64,000 bases of DNA, taken from assembly GCA_049841135.1 (NCBI GenBank), contig JASGHK010000008.1, positions 211,272-275,271 on the forward strand. The letters run 5' to 3'. The notes below the pieces were generated by a model. It was not told the origin of the DNA, searched no databases, and saw only the letters and a program-made list of their open reading frames with translations. The translations under genes and the position numbers were made by a program. Each line of letters starts with the position of its first letter. Within the stretch, counting starts at the first letter, position 1. Source of the stretch: Myxococcales bacterium. Lineage in GTDB: Bacteria > Myxococcota > Myxococcia > Myxococcales > UBA5297. Shown piece after piece: positions 11,064 to 63,681 of this stretch.

Positions 11064-11150
11064 GGGGCTTCGGGCTGCAGGCTTCGGGCTTCGGGCTTCG
11101 GGTCGGGTGAGGGTCAAGCCACCTGAGGTCCGAAGGCCGAAGCCCGCGGG
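11064..11150. repeat. REP-like intergenic repeat of the GGCTTCGGG family with palindromic arms
   Basis: The sequence reads ggggcttcgggctgcaggcttcgggcttcgggcttcgggtcgggtgagggtcaagccacctgaggtccgaaggccgaagcccgcggg. It shares the core GGCTTCGGG(N)GTCAAGCC with the repeats at 30898..31027 and 63509..63681. Confidence 0.5.
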
Positions 11151-27899: not shown

Positions 27900-30797
27900 C
27901 TACTGGCAGTAACCCGAGTTCATGCCGCCGGTGGTGCAGGTGCCGCTGGCGCAGTAGTTGCCCAGGCAGCAGCGCTGGGTCGTCGCGCCGCAGCTCTGGC
28001 ACTGGTTCTGGGCGCAGATGAAGCCGGTGCCGCACCAGGCACCGCCGGTGCCGGGGCAGCAGGCCTGTCCGGAGCCGCCGCAGGCGACGCACACCTGGTT
28101 GAAGTTCGAGGTCGTGTAGGCCTCGGTGCAGCCGTTGATGGGGCAACGGTCCTCGCCCAGGCCGCCGCAGGGATCGCCCTGGCTCTCGCAGCTGCCCTGG
28201 ACGCAGGCCCCCTCGCCGCCGGTGCAGGCCGCGCCGCTGGCGAGGCAGAGGCCGTCGCGGTCGCAGCACCCGCCCCCTTCGCAGGCGATGCCGTCGCAGC
28301 AGGGCTGCCCGGCTCCGCCGCAGGCCTGGCAACGGTCGCCGTTGTTGGCCGCCGGCGCGCAGACCGTGCCCGCCGCGGTGCAGAAGTCGCTGCCGCGCTG
28401 GCTGACGCAGCAGGCCTGGCCGAGCCCGCCGCAGGTGGTGTTGCCGGAGGTGCACCCCGTGGCGCCGCAGGTGCCGAAGGCGCCGGTGCAGGCGGCCCCC
28501 GAGGCCACGCAGACCGAGCCCGAGCAGCAGCTGGTGCCGCCGCAGGTGGCGTCCGGGCAGCAGGCCTTGCCGTCGGAGCCGCACTCGACGAACTGGCCGC
28601 TGGAGCAGATGAGCCCGGAGGCCGAGCCCGAGGCCCCGTCGGGGACGCAGGTGTTGCTGGCGGTGTCGACGCAACCGCCGCCCACGCAGGTCGGCGGGGT
28701 GCCCGGGCAGGGCGCCTGGAAGGGCCCGCCGCAGGACTCGCACGCGCCGCTGGCGCCGCACACCGCGCCGGTGCCGCAGGCCGCGCCGGGGGCGACACAG
28801 GCGCCGCCGGTGCAGCAGCCGCCGGTGCAGCTGTTGCCGGCGCAGCAGGCGTTGCCCACGACGCCGCAGGTCTTGCAGGTGCCGCCCTGGCAGGTGGTGC
28901 CCGCCGCGGTGCAGGTGCTGAGCAGGCAGCAGGGACCGTCCAGGCCGCCGCAGGTCCCGCAGGCGCCGTCGGTGCAGGTGGCGCCGCCGGTGCAGGTGCC
29001 GCCGGGGGCGATGCAGGTGCCATTGGTGACGGCGGTGGCTCCGACGCAGCAGCCGCCGGTCTCGCAGCCGTTGTTGGCGCAGCAGGCGCTGCCCGCCGTG
29101 CCGCAGGCCGCGCAGGTCCCCAGGGCGTTGCAGATCGCCCCGGTGTTGCAGGCCCGGCCGGAACAGCAGGGGCTGCCGGCGGCGCCGCAGGAGACGCAGG
29201 TGTTGTTGTTGCAGACGTTGCCCGTGCCGCAGGCGCCGCCCGCGCAGCAGGGCCCGCCCGCCGTTCCGCAGGCCGTGCAGGTGCCCCCGCTGCAGACGTT
29301 GCCGGCCGAGCAGGCGCCGCCCGCGCAGCAGGGCTGGGTGGCGCCGCCGCAGGCCTCGCAGGTGCCGTTGACGCAGCGGCCGCCGGCGGCGCAGGCGTTG
29401 TTGGCGCAGCAGCCCTCGCCGACCGCACCGCAGTGCGTGCAGGTGTTGAGGGCGGTGCAGGTGGAGCTGGCGGCGCAGGTGCGGCCGACCGCCACGCAGG
29501 TCTTGTTGGCGGGGTCGGTGGTGTTGCAGCAGCCGGTGTTGCAGGCGTCGCCGGCGCAGCAGGGCTGGCCGGGGCCGCCGCAGCCGGCGCAGGCGCCTCC
29601 CGCCAGGCAGAGATCGCCGTCGGAGCAGGCCGAGCCGACGTTGATGCAGCGGCCGTTGCCGTTCACGTCGCAGCAGCCGGCGGTGCAGGCGTCGCCCGGG
29701 CAGCAGACCTCGCCCGCGCCGCCGCAGTTCTGGCAGGTGCCGTTGCGGCAGGAGGTGCCGGCGGCGGTGCAGGTGTTGTTCGCGCAGCAGGCCGAGCCGG
29801 CCGTGCCGCAGGTGGCGCAGGTGCCCAGGGTGCACAGCGTGCTCGGGGCGGTGCAGACGGTGGGCGGCATCCCGCAGCAGGTCTCGCCCGTGCCGCCGCA
29901 GGTGCCGCAGGCACCGGCGGCGCAGGTGCCGCCGCTGGGGCAGGCGGAGCCGGAGGCGACGCAGGTGCCGCTGTAGCAGCAGCCGCCGGTCTCGCAGGTG
30001 TTGGCCGCGCAGCAGGCCTCGCCCGCGCCGCCGCAGTTGGCGCAGGTGCCGTTGCGGCAGACGAGGTCGGCCCCGGTGCAGGTGTTGCCGGCGCAGCAGG
30101 CGTCGCCGACCGAGCCGCAGACGACGCACAGGCCGGCGCGGCAGGTGGCGCCGGCGGCGGTGCAGGTGTTGCCCTCGCAGCAGGGCTCGCCGCCCGCGCC
30201 GCAGGCGGCGCACTGGCCGGTCGAGCCGCAGACGAGGCCCGTGCCGCACTCCTGCGCGCCGCCGGTGCAGCAGGCCTGGCCGGCGCCGCCGCAGGGCGGG
30301 GCCGCGCAGGTCCCGGCGGTGCAGACCTGGCCGCCGCCGCAGCTCTGGCCCTCGGCGAGGCAGGAGCCGCCCGAGCAGCAGGCGTTCCCGGTGCAGGTGT
30401 TGCCGCCGCAGCAGGTCTGGCCAGGCGCGCCGCAGGGGACGCACTGGCCGCTCGCGTTGCACAGGCCGCCGCCGGTGCAGACGTTGCCCGGACAGCAGAA
30501 CTGGCCGTTGGCGCCGCACTCGCCGGCGTCGTAGTCGATGGAGGCGTCGGGCGGGACGATCGGGTCGGCGTCCGGGAGGTCGACGACGGTCGCGTCGGGC
30601 GTCTCGACCACGCCGGTGTCGCCGGCCACCACGATCGCGGCGTCGCCCGGCAGCGTTCCGGTGTCGCCGGCCGTGACGATGCCGGTGTCGGAGGTGCTGC
30701 CCCCGCCGTCGGCGACGTAGGGCGCCACGGGCTCGGCGCAGCCAGCAGCCATCACCAGCGCGAGACAGGCTCGCGCCAGAAGCTTTCGCGTCTCCAT
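27900..30797 (-). CDS. Giant Cys/Gly-rich tandem-repeat lipoprotein of 965 aa with about 30 CGxxGQxCCxGNxC-type modules
   Basis: A GGGAGG ribosome-binding site lies upstream and the signal and lipobox are METRKLLARACLALVMAAGC. An acidic PDA/TG-rich linker precedes about 750 aa of roughly 25-aa modules such as CGAPGQTCCGGNTCTGNACCSGGSC and CGGAGEVCCPGDACTAGCC. The last module is ...CQSCGATTQRCCLGNYCASGTCTTGGMNSGYCQ. Confidence 0.8.
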   Translation of the reverse strand: METRKLLARACLALVMAAGCAEPVAPYVADGGGSTSDTGIVTAGDTGTLPGDAAIVVAGDTGVVETPDATVVDLPDADPIVPPDASIDYDAGECGANGQFCCPGNVCTGGGLCNASGQCVPCGAPGQTCCGGNTCTGNACCSGGSCLAEGQSCGGGQVCTAGTCAAPPCGGAGQACCTGGAQECGTGLVCGSTGQCAACGAGGEPCCEGNTCTAAGATCRAGLCVVCGSVGDACCAGNTCTGADLVCRNGTCANCGGAGEACCAANTCETGGCCYSGTCVASGSACPSGGTCAAGACGTCGGTGETCCGMPPTVCTAPSTLCTLGTCATCGTAGSACCANNTCTAAGTSCRNGTCQNCGGAGEVCCPGDACTAGCCDVNGNGRCINVGSACSDGDLCLAGGACAGCGGPGQPCCAGDACNTGCCNTTDPANKTCVAVGRTCAASSTCTALNTCTHCGAVGEGCCANNACAAGGRCVNGTCEACGGATQPCCAGGACSAGNVCSGGTCTACGTAGGPCCAGGACGTGNVCNNNTCVSCGAAGSPCCSGRACNTGAICNALGTCAACGTAGSACCANNGCETGGCCVGATAVTNGTCIAPGGTCTGGATCTDGACGTCGGLDGPCCLLSTCTAAGTTCQGGTCKTCGVVGNACCAGNSCTGGCCTGGACVAPGAACGTGAVCGASGACESCGGPFQAPCPGTPPTCVGGGCVDTASNTCVPDGASGSASGLICSSGQFVECGSDGKACCPDATCGGTSCCSGSVCVASGAACTGAFGTCGATGCTSGNTTCGGLGQACCVSQRGSDFCTAAGTVCAPAANNGDRCQACGGAGQPCCDGIACEGGGCCDRDGLCLASGAACTGGEGACVQGSCESQGDPCGGLGEDRCPINGCTEAYTTSNFNQVCVACGGSGQACCPGTGGAWCGTGFICAQNQCQSCGATTQRCCLGNYCASGTCTTGGMNSGYCQ

Positions 30798-30897
30798 TTT
30801 TCGGACCTCCCGAGGCTTGGTTCCTCGCTGCTCCGGGCCGGCAGTCCACGGAGCGGACGAAGGCGAGGATACCCCCGGGGCCGTCCCCGGCCTAACA

Positions 30898-31027
30898 AGG
30901 GCTTCGGGCTGCGGGCTTCGGGCTTCGGGTCAAGCCGCGGGTAGAGGTTCTCGAGGGCGTTGCCCGCGTTGTCCCCGGTCAGCTCGCCCGAAGTCCCGAA
31001 GTCCCGAAGTCCCGAAGCCCGAAGCCC
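30898..31027. repeat. REP-like palindromic intergenic repeat (GGCTTCGGG family) between the Cys-rich lipoprotein and the MVP-like gene
   Basis: The sequence reads gcttcgggctgcgggcttcgggcttcgggtcaagccgcggg ... cccgaagtcccgaagtcccgaagtcccgaagcccgaagccc. The two arms are inverted complements that could form a long hairpin. It shares the core with 11064..11150 and 63509..63681. Confidence 0.55.
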
Positions 31028-41289: not shown

Positions 41290-41642
41290 GCGAGCCTCCG
41301 CAGCAGTTCCGCGAGCTCGGCAACGTCGAGCCCCTCGATGCGAAGCCCGCGCGGCCCATGCACGACCAGGCGGCTCGGAACGGGAACAGCAGCGACGGGC
41401 TCGTCTTCCACGACGACTGGAGCGAGCAGCGCGCGTTCCCGCCTGCTCCACCGCCCCAGCGTCAGTGCCCCGAGCCCAAGCCGGTCCGCGGCTGCCTGGG
41501 CGCTCTCGCCCGTCGCCAGCAGGGCGCGATAGCACGCCACCGCTTCCTGTCGCAGTTCCTCAGGCAGGGGCCGCAGTCCGGACGCATGCCCGAACTGCTC
41601 CCGCTGCTGCCTGACCCGCTCCGCCCGTTGCTTCACGTCCAT
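41286..41642 (-). CDS. tnpA: IS66 Orf1 (TnpA) of copy 1
   Basis: 118 aa in the first position of the IS66 operon (MDVKQRAERVRQQREQFGHASGLRPLPEELRQEAVACYRALL...), with helix-turn-helix-like features. Confidence 0.8.
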   Translation of the reverse strand: MDVKQRAERVRQQREQFGHASGLRPLPEELRQEAVACYRALLATGESAQAAADRLGLGALTLGRWSRRERALLAPVVVEDEPVAAVPVPSRLVVHGPRGLRIEGLDVAELAELLRRLA

Positions 41643-41879
41643 CGCGCGTGCCTCCTTGGGAGTTCACGCGCGAATACCGCGGCCTGGCGAAGGCTACGAG
41701 ACGGGGACGGGCGAGGACGTACGATTCGTCCATCGATCGCGGGCGCCCCGTTGGGCCCGCTCCAGGACCTTACGGAGCAGGCTCGTGGGCGCCCAGCCCC
41801 CGTGGGGCGCTTCGTCGCCTGGGCGGGCAGGACCTCACGCCGGACGGCCCCTCCGCGCCGCGCTGCCCAGCTTTCCAAG

Positions 41880-42140
41880 GTGAGCTTGGACGGGCTGATC
41901 TCCGAGGGGAGCCTGCGCGCAGCCGTCCAGTTCCTGGTCCGGCTCGTCGAGACCGCCGGGGCGATCATCATCTTCGCGGGCGCCGCCACGGGCTTCGCCC
42001 GCTTCCTGCTGGTCGCCGCGCTGCGGCGCAACCCCTCGCTGTTCACGCCGGTCCGCCTCGACGTGGGGCGGTTCCTCGCCTTGGGGCTCGAGTTCCAGCT
42101 CGCCTCGGACCTGTTGCGCACGGCCGTGGCCCCTCCTTGA
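41880..42140 (+). pseudogene. DUF1622-like small membrane protein gene, C-terminally truncated by the tandem repeat array
   Basis: From GTG 41880 the sequence reads SLDGLISEGSLRAAVQFLVRLVETAGAIIIFAGAATGFARFLLVAALRRNPSLFTPVRLDVGRFLALGLEFQLASDLLRTAVAPP*. It matches the DUF1622 pattern (…GR.L.LGLEF.LAADI.RT…) but stops abruptly where the first repeat unit begins. Confidence 0.5.
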
Positions 42141-42662
42141 AAATCCGCCCCGCCGCGCCCGCCCGAGACCTGTCACACGCCGAGGACCTGTCCCACGTGG
42201 GACAGGTCTCTCCCTTTGGAAACTCGCCCCGCCGCGCCCGCCCGAGACCTGTCACACGCCGAGGACCTGTCCCACGTGTGCCAGGTCTCTCCCTCGGGAA
42301 ACTCGCCCCGCCGCGCTCGCCCGAGACCTGTCACACGCCGAGACCTGTCACACGCCGAGGACCTGTCACACGCCGAGGACCTGTCCCACGTGGGACAGGT
42401 CTCTCCCTCTGGAAATCGGAAATCCGCCCCGCCGCGCTCGCCCGAGACCTGCCACACGCCGAGGACCTGTCACACGTGTGGCAGGTCTCTCCCTCTGGAA
42501 ATCCGCCCCGCCGCGCTCGCCCGAGACCTGTCACACGCCGAGGACCTGTCACACGTGTGGCAGGTCTCTCCCTCTGGAAATCCGCCCCGCCGCGCTCGCC
42601 CGAGACCTGTCACACGCCGAGGACCTGTCACACGTGTGGCAGGTCTCTCCCTCTGGAAATCC
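42141..42662. repeat. Tandem array of about 79-bp units, 6.1 units on this side, each holding a CACGTG-centred near-perfect palindrome and 18-bp internal sub-repeats
   Basis: The consensus unit is GGAAATCCGCCCCGCCGCGCTCGCCCGAGACCTGTCACACGCCGAGGACCTGTCACACGTGTGGCAGGTCTCTCCCTCT. Units start at 42141, 42218, 42297 (115 bp, with two extra GACCTGTCACACGCCGAG copies), 42411 (86 bp), 42497, 42576 and 42655. The seventh unit is split by IS66 copy 2 after its first 8 bp. Confidence 0.9.
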
Positions 42663-42757
42663 GTACGTCCTCGCCCGTCCCCGTCTGGCGGAGGGCGCCA
42701 GGGGCGCGTATTCGCGCGCGCGTGCGAGGCCGGCGCCGCGCGCCGGCGGCGTAGTGG

Positions 42758-44269
42758 TCAGGGCTGGGGCACGGCGGCCGCGTGCTCGTGCGGCAGCGGC
42801 ATTGGCTGGTGCGTGAGGCGCGCGATGACCGCAGCCTTGAGGTAGGCGCGCGGGTCTACGCGGTGGAGCTTGCAGGTCTCCATCAGCGTGTACATCAGCG
42901 CCGCCACCTCAGCGCCGCGCTCGGATCGAGAGCCGTAGTGGTTCTTGCGCCCGAGCACCACGCCGCGCAGCGAGCGTTCGGCGAAGTTGTTGTCGAGCGG
43001 CACGAGCGGGTCAGCCAGGAAGACCGTCAGCCCCTTCCACTGGCCCTGCATGTACTTGATCGCCTCGGCCAGGCCGCTCGACGGCAGCACCATCGCGAGC
43101 GTCCGGTTTCCCCACCGCTCGATGTCCTCGATGACCTGGGTGGACTTCTCCGCGCGCAGACGGGCGCGCTGAGCCAGGCCCTCGGCGCCATTGGAAGCGA
43201 CCTCGCCCTCGATTCGATAGAGCTCTGCGATCAGTCCCAGGATCTCCGAGACCGGCTGCGGAAAGTTCTTCTCGACCTCCAGGAATTTTCGGCGCGCATG
43301 CGGCCAGCAAGAAGCGAGCCGGAAGCTGGGGCCGTCACGCGACTGCGCCAAGCTCGAGTAGACGCTGTAGCCGTCAGCCATCACCGTGCCGCGATAGCCG
43401 GCCAGCAGCTCGCGGGCCACCTGCGCGCCGCGCGAGGGGTCGATGTGGTGGTAGACCGCGCGGCTCGAGCAGATGGTCCAGTCGTACCACCACTCGCTGC
43501 CCTTCTCGCCGCGCGCAGCCATCTTGCGCCAGCGCGTCTCGTCGGCGTGGACCACGGCGTCTGTCAGCACCAGCGCCCGCAGCCGCGGTCGTAGCGGCTC
43601 GAGGACCGCCGCCAGCGCCTCGAGGTAGTCCCACAGCGTCTGGGAGTCGGTCACCAGTCCGTCGCGCTTCATGGCGCGGCACTGCCGCTCCAGCGGCTGG
43701 TGGTCGGTGTACTTGTCCACGGCGATGCCGATGGCGAAGTCGATGGAGTAGCGCGCCCCCTCGAAGAGCTTGAGCGGGCCGGGCGCGGTGACGATGCACT
43801 CGTTGCAGGAGCAGCGGTACTTCTGCCGCAGGTGCTTGTGCAGCTCGAAGCGGCGGTGGACGACAGTGATCTCCTCGGAGGGCTCAAACTCGCCCTTCAT
43901 CGGATTGAGCGTCCCGCCGCACTTTTCACACTGGAGCTGGTCCTCGCCGAGCGCCCAGATGCGCTCGATGGACGGCAGGGCCGGCTGCTCCCGGCGGCCG
44001 TGACCCGTCTGCGGCTTTTTCGCCGCCGAGGTCGGCTCGCCGCGGCGCTCCGACGACGAGGGCGCGAAGAGCTTCTCGTTCTGGAGCGCGAGCTGCCGCT
44101 GCAGCTTCTCGAGCTCGAGCTGCAGCGCCTTGGTGTCGCCGCCCTTGAGCGCGGTCAGCTCGGCGAGCACCTCGGCGATGCGCCGGTGCAGGTGCCGGTT
44201 CTCGGCCTCGAGGAGTATCGCCGCTTGCCGCAGCACCTCGATGTTCTTCTCGCGCTCAAGGGAGACCAA
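42758..44269 (-). CDS. tnpC: IS66-family transposase (TnpC) of copy 2
   Basis: The 503-aa product is identical to that of 39355..40866. Confidence 0.9.
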   Translation of the reverse strand: MVSLEREKNIEVLRQAAILLEAENRHLHRRIAEVLAELTALKGGDTKALQLELEKLQRQLALQNEKLFAPSSSERRGEPTSAAKKPQTGHGRREQPALPSIERIWALGEDQLQCEKCGGTLNPMKGEFEPSEEITVVHRRFELHKHLRQKYRCSCNECIVTAPGPLKLFEGARYSIDFAIGIAVDKYTDHQPLERQCRAMKRDGLVTDSQTLWDYLEALAAVLEPLRPRLRALVLTDAVVHADETRWRKMAARGEKGSEWWYDWTICSSRAVYHHIDPSRGAQVARELLAGYRGTVMADGYSVYSSLAQSRDGPSFRLASCWPHARRKFLEVEKNFPQPVSEILGLIAELYRIEGEVASNGAEGLAQRARLRAEKSTQVIEDIERWGNRTLAMVLPSSGLAEAIKYMQGQWKGLTVFLADPLVPLDNNFAERSLRGVVLGRKNHYGSRSERGAEVAALMYTLMETCKLHRVDPRAYLKAAVIARLTHQPMPLPHEHAAAVPQP

Positions 44270-44302
44270 AGCGCGACCAAGCTAACGCATGAGGGGCGAA
44301 GG

Positions 44303-44692
44303 TCAACCGCTCGCCGGGGAAGCTTTCGCCTGCGCCGCGAGCGTGAACGGCGCCGGGCTCAGCGCGACCCTGCCGACCAGCTCGCTGCCCTCCAGGAAGA
44401 GCGCCAGCTCGCTCGTCGTCATCCGCATCACCCCGTCTGGCCCCAGCCGTTTCCACGGAGCAGCGAAGAGCTGGTTCTCGAGCCGCTTGGCGAAGATGCA
44501 CAGGCCGGTGCCGTCCCAAAAGAGCACCTTTGCCCGCCGTCGGTTCTTGCTCACGAACAGGAACATGTCGCCCGAAAGCGCGTCGCGCTTGAGCTGCAGC
44601 GAGACGAGCGCGTGCAGGCTGTCGAACGACTTGCGCATGTCCGTCGGCGTTCCGCAGGCGAACACCGAGATTTGCCGAGTCGAGCCGATCAC
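44303..44692 (-). CDS. tnpB: IS66 Orf2 (TnpB) of copy 2
   Basis: It is identical in position and sequence to 40900..41289, offset by 3403 bp. Confidence 0.85.
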   Translation of the reverse strand: MIGSTRQISVFACGTPTDMRKSFDSLHALVSLQLKRDALSGDMFLFVSKNRRRAKVLFWDGTGLCIFAKRLENQLFAAPWKRLGPDGVMRMTTSELALFLEGSELVGRVALSPAPFTLAAQAKASPASG

Positions 44693-45045
44693 GCGAGCCT
44701 CCGCAGCAGTTCCGCGAGCTCGGCAACGTCGAGCCCCTCGATGCGAAGCCCGCGCGGCCCATGCACGACCAGGCGGCTCGGAACGGGAACAGCAGCGACG
44801 GGCTCGTCTTCCACGACGACTGGAGCGAGCAGCGCGCGTTCCCGCCTGCTCCACCGCCCCAGCGTCAGTGCCCCGAGCCCAAGCCGGTCCGCGGCTGCCT
44901 GGGCGCTCTCGCCCGTCGCCAGCAGGGCGCGATAGCACGCCACCGCTTCCTGTCGCAGTTCCTCAGGCAGGGGCCGCAGTCCGGACGCATGCCCGAACTG
45001 CTCCCGCTGCTGCCTGACCCGCTCCGCCCGTTGCTTCACGTCCAT
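44689..45045 (-). CDS. tnpA: IS66 Orf1 (TnpA) of copy 2
   Basis: It is identical to 41286..41642. Confidence 0.8.
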   Translation of the reverse strand: MDVKQRAERVRQQREQFGHASGLRPLPEELRQEAVACYRALLATGESAQAAADRLGLGALTLGRWSRRERALLAPVVVEDEPVAAVPVPSRLVVHGPRGLRIEGLDVAELAELLRRLA

Positions 45046-45125
45046 CGCGCGTGCCTCCTTGGGAGTTCACGCGCGAATACCGCGGCCTGGCGAAGGCTAC
45101 GAGACGGGGACGGGCGAGGACGTAC

Positions 45126-45208
45126 GGAAATCCGCCCCGCCGCGCTCGCCCGAGACCTGTCACACGCCGAGGACCTGGCACACGTGTGCCAGGTCCCTCC
45201 CTCTGGAA
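45126..45208. repeat. Distal remainder of the tandem-array unit interrupted by IS66 copy 2
   Basis: The sequence reads ggaaatccgccccgccgcgctcgcccgagacctgtcacacgccgaggacctggcacacgtgtgccaggtccctccctctggaa. It continues the unit that starts at 42655. Confidence 0.85.
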
Positions 45209-45223
45209 TTCTGGCGGCCGCAC

Positions 45224-47245
45224 TCAGCGCTCCAGCGGGGCGCGCTCGAGCACCAGCGTCGTCCACTGCTCCGTCAACGAGAGCCCCGGCACGGTGACCG
45301 AGCCGTCGGCCGCGGCCTGGACCTCTCCGCTGGCTTCGCCGAACGACCAGCGGACGCGCTCGCCAGGCAGACAGCGGAAGGACTGCGTGCGGCGCGGGGT
45401 GACGTCGACCTGGAGCGGAAGAGACCCATCGAGCCGGTCTCCGGTGGTCGGGTAGCCGGGGCGCGGGGACGGGCCGCCGGGGCCGTCCTCGGCGCGGAGC
45501 GGGAGCTCGAGCCGTTCCGGCGTGTCCACGATCTTCGTGGGATCCCAGCGCGCCGAACGGTTGATGCCCCCGGCGATCTCGCCCGACCACCCGGTGTCGC
45601 CGGCAACGGAGACCTTGCCCGCGTATCCGTTCTCGGCGTCCCAACTGCGCTTGCCGTTGCCGCTGCCGTCGCCGGGGTCGCGATCGATGGAGCAGCGAGT
45701 GAAGGCCGGGAACGCCTGGTCGCGGCGCAGGTCCTTGCCGGGATCCCAGGTTCCGAACCAATCGCCCAGGACCGGGTCCGGACGCGTGTGCCCGCCTTCA
45801 TCCCATAGCGCGAGGTGGCCGATGTGCTCCTGCTGCAAGGTCTGAAGGAACGAGTGGGCCGTGAGCGGGCTGGGCTTGACCGCTGCGCTGAAGAGGATGG
45901 TCGTGTCGTCCTTGCCGTGCCAGACCGCGAGGAACTGGTCCCGGGCCTCGGCCTGCGTCGAGAGCACCCGGGTGAGATCGAGCCAATCCCAGATGCCGAC
46001 GCCGTCGCCGCCTTCCAGGCCTTGCTCCGGCGTTCCCCAGAGTTCGGAGAGGGTCTTCATCCGGCTCGGCCGGTGATGCCTGGGGACGGTCTGCGCGGCG
46101 GTGGCCTTCACGAAGCTGAAGTGGCGCGCGTAGAGCAGACCGATCGCGAGCGCCCCGGCGCCGCCCATCGAGCCACCGTTGAGCCAGACGCGCTCTGGAT
46201 CCGCTCCGGGGTACGTGCGCAGGACGTAGTCGAGCAGGTGCATCACCCGCCGGGCCGTGTACGGCTGGACGCGGCCACCCTCCGGGCCGGCGCCCGGAAG
46301 CAGCTCCGAGTAGCCCCACCAGTAGGTGTTCATCGGGTCGTGCGGGTAGAGCCGGAACTCCTTGCTGCTCCCGACGGCGGGCCCGGGGGCGTCGGCGTCG
46401 AAGGCGTGCAGCCGCACCTGCACCGGCATCGGCGCCTCCGCGCTCGCTGCGGAGGGGACCACGAGCTCGGCCTCGAAGCTGCGGCCGGCGTAGCCGGGGC
46501 TGTCGAGGAAAGCGTCGGTCTTCTGGCGCAGCGTGACGACGCTCCAGCCGTTCCCCGCCTGGCGGCGGACCACCACTGGGTCTTCCGGATGGATCGTGTC
46601 GTCCACCACCAGCTCGAGGCTGGCCTCGGCCTGGGCAAGGCCATCGCTGGCGGTCACCTGGACCCGATAGGAGCGCCCGCCCTGGATGAAGGTGGGCCGA
46701 AAGGTGATCCGTCTCGACTGCTCGTCCCATCGCGCCCCAGGCGGCAGGCCGGCGACCCACACTCGCAGCGGGTCCTGGTCGAAGTCGGAGAGGTCCAGTC
46801 CGATGACGCTGGTCTCCTCCTCCGCGATCTCCACCCGCGCGGGAGCACGGATGACCGGAACCGAGTTGCCGACCTCGATCGAAATCGCCGGCGAGCCCAC
46901 CGCCGCGTCACCGCCCAGGGCCAGCTCGTGCGTTCCCCGGCGCAGAGCCGGCAGATCCACCACGAGCTCGTCCGGCGAGAGCCGGTGCGAAGGACAAGCC
47001 ACCCCGTCGAGGAGGACACCCGTTCCGGCTCCGAAGCCGTCTCCGTCCAGGCTCACCGCCCCAGGCACCCCGCCCGGGACGGCGGGCGGGCGCACATTGC
47101 GGAGCTGGGCCGCCGACGCCGGGTCGACAGGCCCCGCTGCGCCGGCGTCAGTCGCCGAGCCGCCAGGCGCATGCCCGCGCCCATGGCACGCGACCATCAG
47201 TAGCGACGAGAGCAGGACCGGCCATGACCCCGAACGGACGACCAT
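45224..47245 (-). CDS. Secreted protein with Ig-like/IPT N-terminal domains and an alpha/beta-hydrolase (esterase-like) C-terminal domain
   Basis: The signal peptide is MVVRSGSWPVLLSSLLMVAC. A serine-hydrolase elbow WLNGGSMGGAGA (GxSxG) is present, and the N-terminal half is rich in beta strands. Confidence 0.65.
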   Translation of the reverse strand: MVVRSGSWPVLLSSLLMVACHGRGHAPGGSATDAGAAGPVDPASAAQLRNVRPPAVPGGVPGAVSLDGDGFGAGTGVLLDGVACPSHRLSPDELVVDLPALRRGTHELALGGDAAVGSPAISIEVGNSVPVIRAPARVEIAEEETSVIGLDLSDFDQDPLRVWVAGLPPGARWDEQSRRITFRPTFIQGGRSYRVQVTASDGLAQAEASLELVVDDTIHPEDPVVVRRQAGNGWSVVTLRQKTDAFLDSPGYAGRSFEAELVVPSAASAEAPMPVQVRLHAFDADAPGPAVGSSKEFRLYPHDPMNTYWWGYSELLPGAGPEGGRVQPYTARRVMHLLDYVLRTYPGADPERVWLNGGSMGGAGALAIGLLYARHFSFVKATAAQTVPRHHRPSRMKTLSELWGTPEQGLEGGDGVGIWDWLDLTRVLSTQAEARDQFLAVWHGKDDTTILFSAAVKPSPLTAHSFLQTLQQEHIGHLALWDEGGHTRPDPVLGDWFGTWDPGKDLRRDQAFPAFTRCSIDRDPGDGSGNGKRSWDAENGYAGKVSVAGDTGWSGEIAGGINRSARWDPTKIVDTPERLELPLRAEDGPGGPSPRPGYPTTGDRLDGSLPLQVDVTPRRTQSFRCLPGERVRWSFGEASGEVQAAADGSVTVPGLSLTEQWTTLVLERAPLER

Positions 47246-47348: not shown

Positions 47349-47729
47349 TCAAGCGCAGTAGCGGCCGAGCTCGGTCAGCAGCCGGTCGAGGTTCACCGGC
47401 TTGAGCAGGAAGCGCTCGATGCCCATCGCCCGGGACCTCGCCGCGAGGTCCGCGTCTCCGGACAGAGCTACCACCGGCACGTGGGCGAGCGCGGGGTCGC
47501 GCAGCTGGGTCTCGCGGAACTGCTGGCCGTCCATCACCGGCATGCGCAGGTCGAGCAGGATCACGTCCGGGAGCGGCCCGCCGCTGCGCAGCGACCGCAG
47601 GGCCTCGGCGCCGTTGGCCGCGGTGGTGACCCGGTAGCCGCCGTCCTCGAGCACGAACTCGAGCGACCAGCGGATGTCCGCGTCGTCGTCCACGATCAGC
47701 ACCAGCCCGGTTCGGTCGGGCGCGCTCAT
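47349..47729 (-). CDS. Single-domain response regulator (CheY-like receiver)
   Basis: The sequence MSAPDRTGLVLIVDDDADIRWSLEFVLEDGGYRVTTAANGAEAL...DVILLDLRMPVMDG...LLKP carries the conserved D-D...D...T...K receiver pattern. Its ATG overlaps the histidine kinase stop (ATGA). Confidence 0.85.
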   Translation of the reverse strand: MSAPDRTGLVLIVDDDADIRWSLEFVLEDGGYRVTTAANGAEALRSLRSGGPLPDVILLDLRMPVMDGQQFRETQLRDPALAHVPVVALSGDADLAARSRAMGIERFLLKPVNLDRLLTELGRYCA

Positions 47730-49405
47730 GCCGCGCTCGGCCCCTGGAGCGGCAGCTCGACCGTGAAAGTGGTGAAGCGGTCGGGCACGCTCTCGGCGTG
47801 GATGGTGCCGCCCTGGCTCTCCACGAGGTGGCGCGCGATGTACAGCCCGAGCCCCAGGCCGCCGTAGGAGCGCGAGGACACCGCGCGGGAGAACTTCTCG
47901 AAGACGTGCGGCAGGTCCTGCGAGGCGATGCCGATGCCGTGGTCGGTCACCTGGAGGCGGGCGGTGGTGCCCGCGGGGTCGACGCCGATCTCGATGGGCC
48001 GGCCGGGCCCGAACTTGACCGCGTTGGAGAGGATGCTGGTGACGACGTGGTCGAGCTTGGCGGCGTCCCAGCGGCCCGGCAGGGTCGCGGGCGCGCGCAG
48101 GCGGATCTCGCAGCCGGCGTCGGAGAAGGCCGGCCGCAGGCGCTCGGCGACGGCGCGCACGATGGCCGCCAGGTCCGTCTCCCCCAGCTGCAGCCCGAGG
48201 TTGTCGAGGTGGATGCGCCCCACGGTGAGCATCTGGTCGACCAGCCCCGCCAGGCGCGTGCACTCGCGCTCCAGGAGCGCCCAGATGGCGTCCTGCCGCG
48301 CCGCGGGCAGGTTCGAGGCCCCGCGGCGCAGCCCCTGCTGGAGCGTGAGCAGCAGCGAGGTCACCGGCGTGCGCAGCTCGTGCGAGGCGACGGAGAGGAA
48401 CTCGTCGCGCAGGCGCACCGCCTCCTGGGCCTGCTCGAAGAGCCGCGCGTTCTCCACCGCCAGCGCGGCGCGCCGGGCGACCTCCTCGGCCAGCCCGACG
48501 CGGTGCTCGTCGAAGACGAAGTCCGGCCGGCTGGAGACGAAGGTGATGGCCCCCAGCGCGCTGCCGTGCAAGACGAGCGGGACCGCGATCAGGGAGCGCG
48601 CCCCCAGGCGCCCGATGATCTCCTTGATCCTCGCGTCGGCGCCGTGGGCGACCAGCACCTCCTCGTTCAGCTCCGACAGCATGACCGTCCGCTTGCCCTC
48701 CACCGCCCGGGCGGCCGGATACCGCCCCGCGACATGGCGCGCGGACAGCTCCTCGAGCAGCCACGCCTTGCCAGGGTCCGCGTGGCTGCCGGCGACACGG
48801 CGCAGCTGCGGGCCCTCGACCACGTCGATGACGCACCAGTCCGCCAGGAAAGGGATGGCCAGGCGAGCGAGGCGGCCGAGCGTGCCGTGGTAGTCCAGCG
48901 ACTCGGTCAGGAGCCGCGAGGCCTCGGCCAGGAAGGCGGCGGCCGCCGCCGCGCGCTGGCTGTCCGCGGCGAAGGCCTTGCTCCTGCCCAGCTCGTGCAA
49001 GAGCGTCCCGGTCACCCGGGTGTAGTCGGCGCGGGTGTTCTGCAGGTCGTGCCTCAGGCGGTCCGCCAGCCAGTCCATCTCCACGCCCTTCTCCCGGAGC
49101 GCTCCCGCCGTCTCGATCGCCCCCAGGCAGGCCTCGAGCAGGCTGCGCAGCGACGGCAGCGCCTCGGTCGGCGCGGTCAGGTGCCAGAAGAGCCGGCCGA
49201 GCCGGGTCTGCGTCACCTGCGGCGCCGGGGTGATGAGCACGCCCTGGAGGCGGTCGCGCGCGTCGGGAAGGACCTGGAAGACCTCCTGCGCGCTCTGCGC
49301 GTGGAGCGCCAGCGGACCGCCGCCCAGCAGGTGCCTCTTGGTCACGGCGCAGGCCTCGAAGCCCTCGGGCACCGGCCGGACCGAGCTCAGGAAGCGCAGG
49401 CTCAT
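47726..49405 (-). CDS. Cytoplasmic GAF-domain sensor histidine kinase
   Basis: A GAF region is followed by HisKA (LRDEFLSVASHELRTPVTSL) and HATPase_c (VTDHGIGIASQDLPHVFEKFSRA...GGLGLGLYIARHLVESQGGTIHAES). ATG 49405 overlaps the stop of the FIST gene. Confidence 0.85.
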   Translation of the reverse strand: MSLRFLSSVRPVPEGFEACAVTKRHLLGGGPLALHAQSAQEVFQVLPDARDRLQGVLITPAPQVTQTRLGRLFWHLTAPTEALPSLRSLLEACLGAIETAGALREKGVEMDWLADRLRHDLQNTRADYTRVTGTLLHELGRSKAFAADSQRAAAAAAFLAEASRLLTESLDYHGTLGRLARLAIPFLADWCVIDVVEGPQLRRVAGSHADPGKAWLLEELSARHVAGRYPAARAVEGKRTVMLSELNEEVLVAHGADARIKEIIGRLGARSLIAVPLVLHGSALGAITFVSSRPDFVFDEHRVGLAEEVARRAALAVENARLFEQAQEAVRLRDEFLSVASHELRTPVTSLLLTLQQGLRRGASNLPAARQDAIWALLERECTRLAGLVDQMLTVGRIHLDNLGLQLGETDLAAIVRAVAERLRPAFSDAGCEIRLRAPATLPGRWDAAKLDHVVTSILSNAVKFGPGRPIEIGVDPAGTTARLQVTDHGIGIASQDLPHVFEKFSRAVSSRSYGGLGLGLYIARHLVESQGGTIHAESVPDRFTTFTVELPLQGPSAA

Positions 49406-50565
49406 CCGCGCTCCCCGAGCAGCAGCAGCACGTAGGTCATGTTGTGGGCGTAGGTCGGGGTGTAGCGGCCGTTCTCCTTGAGGGGGCCGAACTCCGCGAA
49501 GGACGGGAAGCCGACGAGCGGCAGGCCCCGCGGGAAGACGCTCGAGAGGGCGCGCACCTCGTGGTCGATCTGGTCGCCCAGCAGCCACTTGCGGCCCGCG
49601 CAGCTGACCACCAGCGCCGCCGCCGGCTGGAAGTCCAGGGTGCGCGCGCTCTCGGCGATGGCGTAGACCTCACGGACCAGGTCCTCCGGCTCGGCCACGC
49701 AGACCCCCACCCGCTGCCCCTCGGCGATGCCCCCGTACAGGGCCAGCCCGCCGCCGGGCTTGTCGAACTCGGGGATCACCGAGCGCAGCCGCCGGAGCCC
49801 CGGGTGGACGCCGTCGAGGATGGCCAGCGACACGATGCCCCGGTCGGTCCGCAGCGCCGGCTTGCCCGTCTCGCGCTCGACGAAGTCCATCGCCGGCAGG
49901 TCGTCGATGCGCGCCAGGCGGGTCCCCGCGGCCTCGGTGACCCGCCCCGGCGAGCCGATGGTGCGCAGCGCGTTGCCGACCGTGATGTCGAAGGCGAGGT
50001 CCCCGTAGGCCCCCAGCAGCACCAGCGCGTCCTCGAGCACCTCGTCTCCCGAGTACACGAAGCAGCGCTGCAGGCGGTCGTCGTCCGCGGCCAGGCCCCC
50101 GACCAGCGGCACGCGGGTGCCCAGGCCCAGCGCCTCTTCGATCCTCGAGCTGTCGGTCCGGAAGTCGGAGGCCATGAAGAGCAGGGCCGGCTCGCCGCCC
50201 GGCCCCGACTCGCGCAGCCGCTGCAGGCACTGGCGGGTCGCGCCCACGGGGTCGGCCCCCACGCCCCGCGCCTGCGCGGTGACCCAGCGCACCCGGCCCT
50301 CCGTGCTCACCCCCAGCGCCGCGGCGCCGTAGTGGCTGACCCGCGCCGACTCGTAGACGCCGTCGCCGCTGTTGCCCACGACGACCACGCGCTCGTCCTC
50401 CAGCGCGTCGTGCAGGCCCGCGAGCAGGTCCGAGTTCTCGCCGCAGTAGTGGATGCTGGTGAAGAGGAACGCCACCTCGGGGCTCACCGGCTTGAGCGCC
50501 TCGCCGAGGCTGACCCCGGCGCGGTACGGGTCCGACGTGGAGGTGCTGGCGGACAAGGCGAGCAT
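49402..50565 (-). CDS. FIST-domain sensory protein (FIST_N + FIST_C)
   Basis: The 387-aa protein shows the typical FIST signatures (…ALLFMASDFR…; …VGFPSFAEFGP…) and no transmembrane helices. It is the first gene of the FIST / histidine kinase / response regulator operon. Confidence 0.7.
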   Translation of the reverse strand: MLALSASTSTSDPYRAGVSLGEALKPVSPEVAFLFTSIHYCGENSDLLAGLHDALEDERVVVVGNSGDGVYESARVSHYGAAALGVSTEGRVRWVTAQARGVGADPVGATRQCLQRLRESGPGGEPALLFMASDFRTDSSRIEEALGLGTRVPLVGGLAADDDRLQRCFVYSGDEVLEDALVLLGAYGDLAFDITVGNALRTIGSPGRVTEAAGTRLARIDDLPAMDFVERETGKPALRTDRGIVSLAILDGVHPGLRRLRSVIPEFDKPGGGLALYGGIAEGQRVGVCVAEPEDLVREVYAIAESARTLDFQPAAALVVSCAGRKWLLGDQIDHEVRALSSVFPRGLPLVGFPSFAEFGPLKENGRYTPTYAHNMTYVLLLLGERG

Positions 50566-50718
50566 TGGGTTGCGTCCGCGTCACGCCCCCAACCCGTCGG
50601 AACTCGCGTGGCGCCCTCTGCGCGTCGGCCACCCGTGACGCGCTGAAACGAATATTGGCAATCCCGAGGCGGCGGCAACCTGCGCGGCGCGCTCGCCGGG
50701 CTCGGGGCCACCGCCCGT

Positions 50719-50925
50719 TCAAGGCGTCGACGAGGAGGCGACCGGCGACGCCACCCCCGGCAGCCCGCCCCCGGCGGCGGCGAGCTCCAGCGCCCTCTCC
50801 AGCTCCGACGGGTCGACCGGCTTGGTGAAGTGCAGGTCGCAGCCAGCCTGCGCGCAGCGGCGCTGGTCCTCGGCCCGCCCGTAGCCCGAGACCGACCCGG
50901 GGGACCTCTCGGCGCGAAGGAACAT
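50719..50925 (-). pseudogene. Orphan fragment encoding only the C-terminal third of a receiver domain
   Basis: The sequence MFLRAERSPGSVSGYGRAEDQRRCAQAGCDLHFTKPVDPSELERALELAAAG matches the alpha4-beta5-alpha5 end of REC domains (…A…GADDYLTKP.D..EL…). No N-terminal half is present. Dispersed repeat scars flank it. Confidence 0.4.
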
Positions 50926-51100
50926 CGAAGGCGGTCATGCCGTCGAGCAAGCCAGAGGGTGCGCCCCTCGAGTAGGACTGCGGGGCTATCGCTGGCGGTC
51001 ACCTGGACTGATGGGAGCGCCCGCCCTGGATGAAGGTGGCCGAAAGGTGATCTTCCTCGACCGCTCGTCCCATCGCGCCCCCGGCGGCAGGCCGGCGACC

Positions 51101-52177
51101 CTACGACGCAGCGAAAGTGTCGGGGAGCTTGGGCCGGTCCGGCGCCGTCCCGAAGCGGGCCTTGAGCGCCGGGCCGAAGGCGCACCGGACGATCAGCGCC
51201 CCCAGCGCCGGCCATGCACCCTCCAGCCATGAGAGGAGCCGGGTGCCCCAGCCCATCACCGTCCGCGGCCGGCGGGCGAGCAGCGCCTGCAGCACCACGT
51301 CCGCCACGCGCTCGGGCGGGACCAGCTTCGTCCCCATCCGCGCCCACAGGTCCGCGAAGGGCCGCTCGGCGGCGGTGTCCGCGGGCGCCGGACAGACGTA
51401 GGCCAGGCGCACGTCCACCCCTTCGATCGCCAGCTCGCGGTTGAGCGCCTCGCAGAACCCCGCCAGCCCCGCGCGGGCGGCGACGTCCGCGGCGTAGTAC
51501 GGCAAGGCCAGGCGCCCGTCACCGAAGCCCCCGACCAGTGCCAGCGTGCCGCCGGGCGCGACGCGGCCCACCAGCGCGCGGGCGAGCAGCATCGGCGCCC
51601 GCAGATCCACCTGCAGCTGGGCGTCGATGTCCGCCACGTCGTGCTGGGCGAACGGCTTGCGCACGTCCACGCCCGCCGCGGACACGACGTGGTGGACGGT
51701 GCCCAGCCGCTGCGCCACCGACTCGATCTGCGCGGCATCGGCGAGGTCCACGGGGTGCGCCTGCGCGCCCAGCTCGGCGGCGAGCGCGGCGAGCTTCTCG
51801 GCATCGCGGCCGACGAGCAGGAGCTCACCCCCTTCGCGACGCACCGCTCGCGCGATCGCGCCGCCCAACCCTCCGGTCGCTCCAAAGACCGCGACGCGCC
51901 GACCGGCGAAGCTCTTCCCGGTGCGGACCTTGGGCGCCCGGAACTTCGCGATCACCTCGGCGCCCAGGTAGAAGCCGCCGACCCAGAAGAGCAGCTCGCC
52001 CGCGGCCAGGCAGGCGGCCCCGAGGGCCACGCGCGTCGCGGCCTCCACGGGGAGGAACGGCACGACCAGGAAGGCCGCGAACCAGACCGGGAAGGACGCC
52101 ACCACCGCGGTCCAGGCGGCCGCGCGCAGGGCGCGCCGCAGCGCGCTCGGCGCCGCAGGTCGAGGGGAGGTGCTCAT
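51101..52177 (-). CDS. Short-chain dehydrogenase/reductase family oxidoreductase with an N-terminal membrane anchor of about 70 aa
   Basis: ATG 52177 follows an AGGGGAGG ribosome-binding site and overlaps the TetR stop (ATGA). Two transmembrane helices precede the Rossmann motif VAVFGATGGLGGAIARAV and SDR body. The long six-frame ORF 51101..52858 is an artefactual N-terminal extension. Confidence 0.75.
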   Translation of the reverse strand: MSTSPRPAAPSALRRALRAAAWTAVVASFPVWFAAFLVVPFLPVEAATRVALGAACLAAGELLFWVGGFYLGAEVIAKFRAPKVRTGKSFAGRRVAVFGATGGLGGAIARAVRREGGELLLVGRDAEKLAALAAELGAQAHPVDLADAAQIESVAQRLGTVHHVVSAAGVDVRKPFAQHDVADIDAQLQVDLRAPMLLARALVGRVAPGGTLALVGGFGDGRLALPYYAADVAARAGLAGFCEALNRELAIEGVDVRLAYVCPAPADTAAERPFADLWARMGTKLVPPERVADVVLQALLARRPRTVMGWGTRLLSWLEGAWPALGALIVRCAFGPALKARFGTAPDRPKLPDTFAAS

Positions 52178-52751
52178 TTCGACCTCCCCTTCTTCTGGCT
52201 CGCACGGGCCCGCGGCGGCGTTCGGGGTTTGGGTTCTGGCTGGGCGATGGCGAGCAGGCGGTCGGCGAGCTTCGCCCGGTCCGAGTCGGACGGCGGCGCC
52301 ATGTCGAGCAGGTCCGCGTACCAAAGACCGTCCAGGGCCAGGCGCACCAGCAGCGCCGTGGTCCGGTCGCCGGTGCACGCCTCCAGCGCCCGGTCCCACT
52401 CGGAGTACCTCTTCCGGAAGGGCTCGAGCAGCGCCGGGGCATGGGCGACGGCCGCCACCAGGCTCGCGGAGAGCGCCTCGTCGGCCGGGTCGGCCTCTTC
52501 CAGCGAGGCGCGCACGTACCGCTCCAGCATCCCGTCGGCGGGCCCGGTCAGGCGGGCCTCGAAGCGCCGCACCAGCCGCTCGACGAGCGCGGCCACCAGC
52601 GCCTCCTTGCTGGGGAAGTGGTAGAGGACGCCGCCCTTGCTGGTGGCCGACTCCGCGGCGACGGCGTCCAAGGTCAGGCAGGCCGATCCGTCGCGGCGGA
52701 CGACCCGGGCGGCTGCGTCCAGGAGCTCTCTCTCCGACTCGGTCGAGGCAT
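52174..52751 (-). CDS. TetR-family transcriptional regulator, with an apparent 1-nt frameshift in a (GA)n run near 52726-52734
   Basis: The helix-turn-helix reads …RELLDAAARVVRRDGSACLTLDAVAAESATSKGGVLYHFPSKEAL and is followed by a TetR C-terminal domain. The in-frame stretch has no start codon. ATG 52751 (MPRPSRR...) falls into frame if one base is added in gagagagag, which gives MPRPSRREELLDAAARVV.... Confidence 0.7.
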
Positions 52752-52823
52752 GGCGAAACGATACCGTCCAGACGGTACAGTTTCAACCGATTCGCCGGAC
52801 CCGAACGAGAGAGCAGCCAGCGC

Positions 52824-53723
52824 TCAGTGGAAAGCGATTTGGAAGGTCTTGTTGGCATCGACGGTCTGCCCGTCCAGGCAGTAGGACGCCACGCAGGTTC
52901 CGGTCGGGTCGTTCAGCTCGCGGGCGCCGGACCAGGCCTCGCCGTAGAGCACGTAGCTCTGGCCCTGCGGAATCAGGGCGAACTTGGGGAAGACGCACTC
53001 GCTGTCGACGCAGGAGCTGAAGTCGAAGGCATAGGCCGAGCGGAAGACCTGGTTGACCTTCGGGTCGTCGTCGATGCGGCTGCGCGTCGTCGCGTCCTTG
53101 CAGTTGCCCAGGGCCTGCAACTGCGAGCAGTTGATCGTCGAGCCGTCGGGGCGGCGGGAGTCGACGAAGCGCACCACCGCCGACTGGGGCTTGGAGCTGC
53201 CCGTGAGCGTCCCGCCGACGACCAGCCGGATGCCGACCTGGGAGGTGATGGCGTCGCCGCGATAGGTCGCCGCGCCCGGCGCCTTGCAGTAGCCGCCCAG
53301 GCACACGTCGGTGACCATCTCGTCCACGATGTCCCCGCAGATGCTCTGCCGGGAACAAGGCTTGGGCGGCGGCGGCGCGCAGGCGCTCGCCGTGGCGCAG
53401 TCCGAGTCGGCGCAGTCGGTCATTCCGTCGGCGTCGGAGTCCACCGCGTCGGTGCAGTTGGTCTCGTGCGTGTCCGCGGTGCAGACCCCGGAGACGCAGG
53501 TCTTGCCCGTCGCGCAGAAGCCGCAGTGGACGTCCCGGTCCTGGCCGCAGCGGTCGGTCGCCTGGATGCGCTGGCAGTCCTTGCCTTGCGCCTGGCACAG
53601 CTCTTCGGCGGACTCGGGTTCGCACAGCGCGGCGTCGGGCGAGCCCGTGCTCTCGGTGCTGCAGGCGGCGAAGGCGGCGACGAGAAGAAGGAGGACGAGG
53701 CGCGAGGTGCCGCGGCTGGGCAT
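52824..53723 (-). CDS. Cys-rich secreted lipoprotein with no recognised domain
   Basis: The signal and lipobox are MPSRGTSRLVLLLLVAAFAACS. The protein has many paired cysteines (CEPESAEELCQAQGKDCQRIQATDRCGQDRDVHCGFCATGKTCVSGVC...). Confidence 0.6.
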   Translation of the reverse strand: MPSRGTSRLVLLLLVAAFAACSTESTGSPDAALCEPESAEELCQAQGKDCQRIQATDRCGQDRDVHCGFCATGKTCVSGVCTADTHETNCTDAVDSDADGMTDCADSDCATASACAPPPPKPCSRQSICGDIVDEMVTDVCLGGYCKAPGAATYRGDAITSQVGIRLVVGGTLTGSSKPQSAVVRFVDSRRPDGSTINCSQLQALGNCKDATTRSRIDDDPKVNQVFRSAYAFDFSSCVDSECVFPKFALIPQGQSYVLYGEAWSGARELNDPTGTCVASYCLDGQTVDANKTFQIAFH

Positions 53724-63487: not shown

Positions 63488-63508
63488 GGTTCTACCCATA
63501 TGATCGTT

Positions 63509-63681
63509 GCGGGCCGCAGCGTGACGGCCGGACGGACGCTTCGGGACGGGCACTGGCGGCTTGACCCGAAGCCCGAAGCCCTACTTCGGGTGCGGGCCGC
63601 GGCGTGACGGCCGGAGGGACGCTGCGGGACCGGCACTGGCGGCTTGACCCGAGGCCCGAAGCCCGCAGCCCGAAGCCCCTC
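63509..63681. repeat. Two tandem, roughly 80-bp copies of a REP-like element (GGCTTCGGG family) with the core ggcggcttgacccgaagcccgaagccc
   Basis: The region reads gcgggccgcagcgtgacggccggacggacgcttcgggacgggcactggcggcttgacccgaagcccgaagccc followed by a second, more diverged copy. The core is the reverse complement of the one at 30921-30939. Confidence 0.55.

Follow-up and report, generated by a model that had tools for sequence, protein, structure and literature searches.

A 79-bp palindrome-bearing tandem repeat, split by an IS66-family element, on a Myxococcales chromosome

Among the non-coding repeats of bacteria, the mycobacterial interspersed repetitive units, a class of variable-number tandem repeats (MIRU-VNTR), are dispersed at about 40 loci and have small open reading frames (ORFs) coupled to the flanking genes. 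In enterobacteria, repetitive extragenic palindromes (REP) and bacterial interspersed mosaic elements (BIME) act as terminators, insulators or 3'-end stabilisers. REP, BIME and REPIN sequences are GC-rich and extragenic, often clustered, often placed between convergent genes and hit by insertion sequences (IS) (PMC3333891, PMC3116915, PMC1525189); their dispersed copies number in the hundreds, and RAYT transposases are associated with them (PMC3333891, PMC3116915). The IS families described as targeting REPs are IS3, IS110, IS4, IS256 and IS5, not IS66 (PMC1525189). The pneumococcal BOX element, a dispersed family bounded by terminal inverted repeats and present more than 100 times per genome, has between its boxA and boxC modules a boxB module in a varying number of tandem copies (PMC3049150). 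The F-plasmid centromere sopC, next to sopAB, consists of a 43-bp unit repeated 12 times in tandem, and SopB binds the 16-bp inverted repeat that every unit contains (PMC3177203). Here we analysed a 64-kb window (64,000 nucleotides, GC 71.6%; all coordinates are positions within it) of a 1.65-Mb chromosomal contig from a metagenome-assembled Myxococcales genome, in which a tandem array of 79-bp units, each containing a 24-nt palindrome, lies between a truncated DUF1622 gene and a convergent esterase gene. With a probability of roughly 0.55, we consider this array to be a non-coding, private minisatellite whose growth was due to slippage or unequal recombination.

The array is made up of the following parts:

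42139-42662, + strand: left part of the array, with six full units (U1 42139-42217, U2 42218-42296, U3 42297-42417, U4 42418-42496, U5 42497-42575, U6 42576-42654) and the first 8 nt of U7 (42655-42662).
45126-45211, + strand: right part of the array, with U7 (45126-45204) and the start of a partial eighth unit, GGAATTC (45205-45211).
42325-42390, + strand: expanded block of four 13-mer copies in U3, a 17/18-nt sub-repeat CCGAG(G)ACCTGTCACACG.

Tandem Repeats Finder reported period-79 arrays at 42146-42354 (2.7 copies, 94% matches) and at 42418-42663 (3.1 copies, 99%), and the consensus of the latter is identical to that of the original prediction. At up to two mismatches, the window contains 24 occurrences of the 13-mer GACCTGTCACACG where 1.9 are expected, a count reached by 0 of 100 shuffles, and 23 of these occurrences fall inside the array. 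Each unit opens with a 26-nt head, GGAAATCCGCCCCGCCGCGC(T/C)CGCCC, and the dinucleotide GA, after which come one direct 13-mer with CCGAG behind it, the 24-nt palindrome and a 9-nt tail, TCTCCCTCT. The palindrome follows the formula GACCTG.C.CACGTG.G.CAGGTC, and its left arm is the second direct copy of the 13-mer, 18 nt from the first. This arrangement, two direct copies of GACCTGTCACACG plus an inverted copy that together make a CACGTG-centred palindrome, perfect in U1 and U3, had been recognised correctly. On the other hand, seven units had been counted in 42141-42662, where only six complete ones (starting at 42139, 42218, 42297, 42418, 42497 and 42576) and 8 nt are present; position 42662, taken as the right end of the array, is the edge of an IS66-family insertion, beyond which the array resumes at 45126-45211 with the seventh unit.

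U3 is lengthened to 121 nt by two additional sub-repeats of 17 and 18 nt and by an additional GGAAATC (42411-42417). Its four direct 13-mers start at 42325, 42342, 42360 and 42378 (spacings of 17, 18 and 18), and period-18 sub-arrays were also reported by Tandem Repeats Finder, the largest at 42321-42390 (4.0 copies, 96% matches). The four copies and the extra heptanucleotide were thus as predicted. Growth by slippage at nested scales is likewise supported, with repeat periods of 7, 17/18 and 79 nt, three rather than the two proposed. The locus displays two features of a minisatellite or VNTR: head-to-tail units within the range of about 10-100 bp and of high identity, and length changes by whole repeats (+17 and +18 nt in U3; +7 nt at 42411-42417), which are a signature of slippage or unequal exchange. 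Aligned in register, the seven units have a mean column identity of 96%, and U7 is 94% identical to the reference unit. U4-6 are nearly identical to one another whereas the edge units, U1-2 and U7, are more diverged, a pattern that fits a recent local expansion. The array begins with G(G/A)AAATCC and ends with the partial GGAATTC, which fits a tandem duplication between short direct repeats.

As 79 is not a multiple of three, the frame shifts with every unit, and a three-phase translation of the unit had no match among 5.8 billion protein clusters, a search that is powerless for the source genome itself, which was annotated with PGAP and in which the array is uncalled. The array is therefore non-coding, and a coding repeat was discarded. 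A CRISPR array had been excluded from the start, and rightly so, since the units abut without spacers; moreover, no cas domains were present in the neighbouring ORFs scanned. The GC content of the array is 0.70, with no AT-rich stretch. We also observed that GC skew reaches -0.21 in 42000-42599, against about +/-0.05 in the surrounding windows, so that the array is strongly strand-asymmetric: its + strand is C-rich, and the - strand has several G-runs per unit.

The palindromes differ among the units as follows (all unstranded):

42185-42208: 24-nt palindrome of U1, GACCTGTCCCACGTGGGACAGGTC, perfect.
42264-42287: palindrome of U2, a chimera with two unpaired positions.
42378-42401: palindrome of U3, perfect.
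42464-42487, 42543-42566 and 42622-42645: palindromes of U4-6, with one T/G position each.
45172-45195: palindrome of U7, perfect but of a different sequence, GACCTGGCACACGTGTGCCAGGTC.

Only two symmetric pairs of unit positions vary, 53/64 (T-A, T-G or G-C) and 55/62 (A-T or C-G), and U1, U3 and U7 are perfect palindromes of two different sequences. The palindrome of U2 joins a U1-type left arm to a U7-type right arm, which implies recombination between unit variants and not conservation. Template switching creates and maintains perfect hairpin arms, and at quasi-palindromes it produces coordinated arm changes without selection (PMC8794818, PMC7202029). We infer that the symmetric differences between the palindromes are best explained by template switching within hairpins together with recombination between unit variants, and not by selection for a binding site.

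The interruption of the array is accounted for by one of two IS66-family elements in the neighbourhood:

42663-45125, - strand: IS66-family copy 2, which splits the array; 2,463 bp, with perfect 24-nt terminal inverted repeats GTACGTCCTCGCCCGTCCCCGTCT and an 8-bp target-site duplication GGAAATCC at 42655-42662 and 45126-45133.
44689-45045, within 44303-44938 and 42758-44269, - strand: genes of copy 2, namely a TnpA-like helix-turn-helix (HTH) protein, TnpB (in the frame of 44303-44938) and TnpC.
39260-41722, - strand: IS66-family copy 1, with perfect 24-nt terminal repeats GTACGTCCTCGCCCGTCCCCGTCT and the target-site duplication GATTCGTC at 39252-39259 and 41723-41730.

The insertion of copy 2 falls precisely on a boundary between units, and U7 begins with the right-hand copy of its target duplication (8 nt, 45126-45133). 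TnpC matches PF03050 (1.2e-74) and TnpB matches PF05717 (2.6e-26), while the zf-IS66 and IS66_C matches are weak; the middle ORF was called in its long frame of 211 aa, and the TnpB match is confined to residues 92-187. With its TnpA-like HTH, TnpB, TnpC, 8-bp target duplication and terminal inverted repeats, the interrupting element fits the IS66 family. Its terminal repeats begin with GTACGTCC, in contrast to GTAAGCG, the typical start in this family. Copy 1 lies about 150 bp upstream of the DUF1622 start. The two copies, in direct orientation and 3.4 kb apart, differ at 4 of 2,463 nt (99.8% identity) and explain why the same gene set appears twice in the ORF list at an offset of 3,403 bp. 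The intact target duplication on each of them suggests two recent transpositions; as these duplications differ (GATTCGTC and GGAAATCC), the insertions were independent, and a composite transposon was ruled out. The target sequences of the two copies are unrelated, and no similarity was found between the 79-bp unit and the IS66 ends. Recombination between the two copies would remove the DUF1622 fragment and six units of the array.

Sensitive blastn and nhmmer searches of the other 63 kb of the window detected no further copy of the unit and gave only weak matches to GC-rich sequence. Among 185,579 representative genomes the unit was absent, and five single palindrome matches lay in coding sequence of unrelated taxa, with dissimilar flanks; the JGI metagenomes likewise lacked the unit and gave one chance match within a coding region. 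These five genome matches and one metagenome match are of the order expected by chance for 20-23 specified bases. There were 0 matches to the unit in IMG/VR, and 0 by blastn in the plasmid and phage collections PLSDB and INPHARED. In the literature the unit motif was met only in an unrelated paper on human cells. By the measure that defines REP, BIME and REPIN families, namely many dispersed copies per genome, the count of further copies is 0 in the other 63 kb of the window and in the public collections. The proposal that the array is invasive was not supported: neither contains a second copy, and target duplications and terminal repeats are lacking from the units themselves; the demonstrable invader is the IS66-family element.

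The array abuts the following features:

41880-42140, + strand: truncated DUF1622 gene of 86 aa, where more than 100 homologs have about 124 aa.
45224-47245, - strand: convergent esterase/alpha-beta hydrolase gene, with its stop codon 12 nt from the right edge of the array; the NCBI version has 578 aa (MGC4122156.1).
33388-45211, unstranded: extra segment of about 11.8 kb, absent from the corresponding interval of a relative; the array is its outermost right edge.

The DUF1622 fragment matches positions 1-52 of the 78 of the Pfam profile and is colinear with its homologs up to residue 85 (...LRTAVAP), after which the homologs continue with (S/T)FEEIGKLAAVAAIRTALNFFL and the window has a proline and a stop. 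This TGA (42138-42140) overlaps U1, which reads GAAAATCC in place of GGAAATCC. In the + frame spanning 41880-42845 it is the sole stop, owed to that single-base difference, without which the fragment would gain a tail of about 235 aa encoded by the array and the IS. In two related loci, an overlapping ORF of about 80 aa follows DUF1622; it is absent at the array locus. That the array replaces the C-terminus of a gene, as had been proposed, is therefore correct insofar as the DUF1622 gene is truncated at the array edge; replacement is only a description, since the lost 3' part and the missing ORF fit a deletion or rearrangement as well as an insertion. The misread array end and the supposed invasion both stemmed from the unnoticed IS66 insertion and this neighbouring rearrangement. 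In the NCBI annotation, the interval from the DUF1622 fragment (MGC4122152) to the esterase (MGC4122156) has room for just three proteins, which correspond to the IS genes, and the array is uncalled; each flanking protein is known from a single assembly.

An origin of the unit from the DUF1622 gene was considered and rejected as unsupported. The coding sequence CGCCTCGGACCTGT (42101-42114) resembles the sub-repeat CGCCGAGGACCTGT at a 77-nt spacing, but local alignment of the upstream 181 nt with the unit gave a score of 25, and among 333 real control windows 21 scored as high. From an intact homolog (L010), the 3' part that the fragment lacks scored 17 against the unit, with a background mean of 17.1; this comparison has low power, as the protein identity of the homolog is only 75%.

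In a related metagenome-assembled genome (assemblies L007-L009), which encodes a 69% identical esterase, a major vault protein (MVP)-like gene follows 229 bp after the esterase, whereas in the window the distance between the two is about 12 kb. The intergenic region of this relative has its homologous counterparts at 45256-45212 and at 33387-33176, on opposite sides of the 11.8-kb segment, which contains a WGR-WD40 protein gene (34647-36146), several uncharacterised ORFs without a family match, both IS66 copies, the DUF1622 fragment and the array. A comparison of orthologous loci revealed no unit-like sequence, and no array, downstream of the esterase in the L007-type relative or in L011, whose esterase is 61% identical. 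The bacterial MVP homolog of the window (30752-33481, - strand, with a likely start near 33195) has an MVP_shoulder domain (7e-29) and Vault_3 and Vault_4 repeat domains, and the related genome also has an MVP homolog next to its esterase. The three independent assemblies L007, L008 and L009 all break about 450 bp downstream of the esterase, inside the vault-protein gene, which suggests a repeat or coverage problem in that lineage.

How might such an array have arisen? In our proposal, the founder would be a non-coding stretch of about 79 bp immediately past the 3' end of the esterase gene, in the gap between the convergent genes, which held a hairpin palindrome of about 24 bp (28-30 bp counting a GAGACC/GGTCTC extension). 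A first duplication may have taken place between the short flanking direct repeats GGAAATC ... GGAATTC, and slipped-strand mispairing or unequal recombination would then have led to seven units, the identical process acting at smaller periods on the 17/18-nt sub-repeat and the 7-nt GGAAATC. The array itself would be non-mobile; an IS66-family element later transposed into a unit boundary, and the DUF1622 3' end would have been lost in a separate deletion or rearrangement with its endpoint abutting U1. Any function of the array would probably be incidental, for instance hairpins that hinder read-through between the convergent genes.

Several points weigh against this minisatellite reading. The hallmark of a minisatellite is copy-number variation from strain to strain, and the class was assigned here from one assembly. 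The term single locus applies to the 64-kb window and the public collections, and not to the rest of the source genome. The array stands exactly at the edge of the lineage-specific segment and could belong to an inserted element. Lastly, the palindrome pairs co-vary (T-A/C-G in U1 and U3 versus G-C/A-T in U7), which could be a sign of selection for dyad symmetry; this covariation is weak, being equalled by 29 of 500 shuffles and drawn from only 6 distinct rows.

An alternative that we regard as unlikely is a dispersed REP-, BIME- or MITE-like (miniature inverted-repeat transposable element) palindromic family, private to the uncultured lineage, of which this locus would be one cluster and the others would lie outside the window. 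The array shares with such families a GC-rich, short and imperfect extragenic palindrome, 24 nt per unit, non-coding and located between convergent genes; it was hit by an IS, as REPs are known to be (PMC1525189), a gene is truncated at its edge, it borders a lineage-specific segment, and its genome was searched only within the 64-kb window. However, not even a degenerate copy was detected in the other 63 kb, where an unrelated dispersed family has about five copies, and nothing was detected in the species representatives, the JGI metagenomes or IMG/VR. The abutting units are individually devoid of target duplications and terminal inverted repeats; apart from the IS66 genes, no transposase of the Y1 (RAYT) or any other type was recognised nearby, with ORFs scanned at 30752-39178 and 47726-52858 on the two sides of the array; and IS66 is not among the families described as targeting REPs, the targets of the two IS copies here being unrelated. 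A MITE, one of the possibilities first raised, was also dismissed because the head (GGAAATCCGCC...) and the tail (...TCTCCCTCT) of the unit are not inverted repeats and flanking duplications are missing.

The unrelated family consists of tandem heptamers, (GGGCTTC)n, with GGGTCAAGCC after them, or of the reverse complement, in intergenic positions:

11065-11120, 30899-30935, 30987-31030, 63553-63590 and 63636-63680: copies of the heptamer family.

These copies indicate that dispersed repeats are detectable at the scale of 64 kb, and the 79-bp unit does not behave as one. The heptamer repeats at 30899-31030 are in facing orientations and could form a long hairpin near the 3' end of the vault-protein gene. 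An 83-bp tandem duplication at 63508-63664 (1.9 copies, 93% matches) contains the heptamer repeat and is another nested tandem repeat. Long tandem repeats were also found in coding sequence, at 28755-30220 and 59325-60456, with periods of about 81-84 and 96/294 nt; their consensuses are rich in TGC codons, suggesting that they encode cysteine-rich repeat proteins.

Rather improbable, in our estimation, is a cis-acting array comparable to a sopC-like centromere, an iteron or an operator, in which a dimeric protein would bind the CACGTG-centred palindrome and the direct half-sites. Each unit does combine a dyad-symmetric 24-mer with direct half-site copies; variation of the palindrome is limited to two symmetric positions that co-vary between U1/U3 and U7, and the layout resembles that of sopC (PMC3177203). 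Against it, the ORFs scanned at 30752-39178 and 47726-52858 included no recognisable gene for ParA/ParB, Rep or a transcription factor; the 18-nt and 79-nt spacings do not appear to be multiples of the helical repeat; the U2 palindrome is a mismatched chimera and those of U4-6 are imperfect; the IS interrupts the array; and the motif occurs in no other genome searched, which argues against a conserved regulon or centromere family. As template switching could also produce the weak covariation, the latter does not support an operator or an RNA role, and the operator array first envisaged gained no positive support. An iteron-type origin was rejected on the grounds that no rep gene was found in the scanned ORFs and that the array lacks an AT-rich stretch. 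A sigma-54 promoter, sought by eye, was also discarded: U7 has TGGCAC in CTGGCACACGTGTGCC, with the GG-to-GC spacing one base short, and the other units lack it.

A role at the RNA level, as a bidirectional terminator, insulator or 3'-end stabiliser of the convergent transcripts, or as a structured non-coding RNA, seems comparably doubtful. It is favoured by the + strand fold of the unit, a 15-bp stem of the first direct copy with the inverted copy (-31.9 kcal/mol, z = -2.9), by the T/G position of U4-6, which makes a G-U wobble on the + strand only, by the last palindrome, which begins 28 nt beyond the esterase stop codon, and by the precedent of the enterobacterial REP and BIME elements. The - strand, in contrast, folds no better than shuffled sequence (z = -0.4 to -1.1), and the long-stem model has no covariation support. 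The palindromes lead into TCTCCCTCT on the + strand or CTCGGCG on the - strand, with no T/U tract, and a scan of 41600-45400 gave 0 terminator-like sites, so that an intrinsic terminator was rejected; a sigma-70 promoter was likewise undetected there. A search of Rfam 15 (cmscan, 38000-47000, E <= 1) gave no match in the array and only an unrelated weak DnaX match at 46945. Moreover, one hairpin would be enough for termination, seven units would call for a separate explanation, and nothing is conserved in the relatives. The structured RNA or hairpin array of the original prediction thus found no positive support.

We consider it very unlikely that the array is the cis site of an unrecognised system on the 11.8-kb segment (centromere-like, for recombination or attachment, or end-binding), read by one of the uncharacterised proteins of 33.9-39.2 kb, or else a cluster that founded a new family of hairpin repeats restricted to this uncultured Myxococcales lineage. 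The segment shows no sign of being a discrete element: its edges have no repeat in common, direct or inverted, that exceeds shuffled sequence (best score 21, shuffled mean 22.5), no integrase or transposase other than those of IS66 was present in its scanned ORFs, no tRNA was found at its edges and its composition resembles that of the surroundings. A discrete mobile element that ends in the array was for these reasons set aside as unsupported. An assembly artefact in the array or in the unit count is barely credible: tandem repeats are error-prone in assemblies and this genome is metagenome-assembled, but in the 1.65-Mb contig two 2.46-kb IS copies with 99.8% identity are resolved at a distance of 3.4 kb, each with its target duplication intact, which points to long reads, and the unit variants are distinct and internally consistent, unlike random errors.

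If the array is a minisatellite, it has little import beyond its locus and would be one more of its kind in bacteria. It could be used to type strains of this uncultured myxobacterium or as a population marker, and it would be a tidy case of nested slippage (7, 17/18 and 79 nt) accompanied by palindrome arms that change in step without evident selection. Dispersed copies, a fixed and conserved array or a specific binding protein would raise its significance.

In behaviour, the closest described systems are the bacterial VNTR minisatellites such as MIRU-VNTR, which share with the array head-to-tail non-coding units of 40-100 bp, gains of whole units and a homogenised centre. In contrast to these dispersed, gene-coupled loci, the array was seen at one locus, and it adds nested 7- and 17/18-nt sub-repeats and a long palindrome. 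BOX is the closest in modular architecture, and both are non-coding with predicted stem-loops, although the 79-bp unit is repeated in tandem at a single locus and has no database relatives. The REP, BIME and REPIN families resemble it in their palindromes and setting, whereas neither their dispersal nor a RAYT association was seen here, and the array joins its palindrome to direct half-sites and a 26-nt non-palindromic head at a strict 79-bp period. The likeness to sopC is one of architecture only: equal-length tandem units without spacers, each with one dyad-symmetric site, stand in both, but the array is chromosomal, with no parA or parB neighbour in the ORFs scanned, variable or chimeric palindromes and extra direct half-sites.

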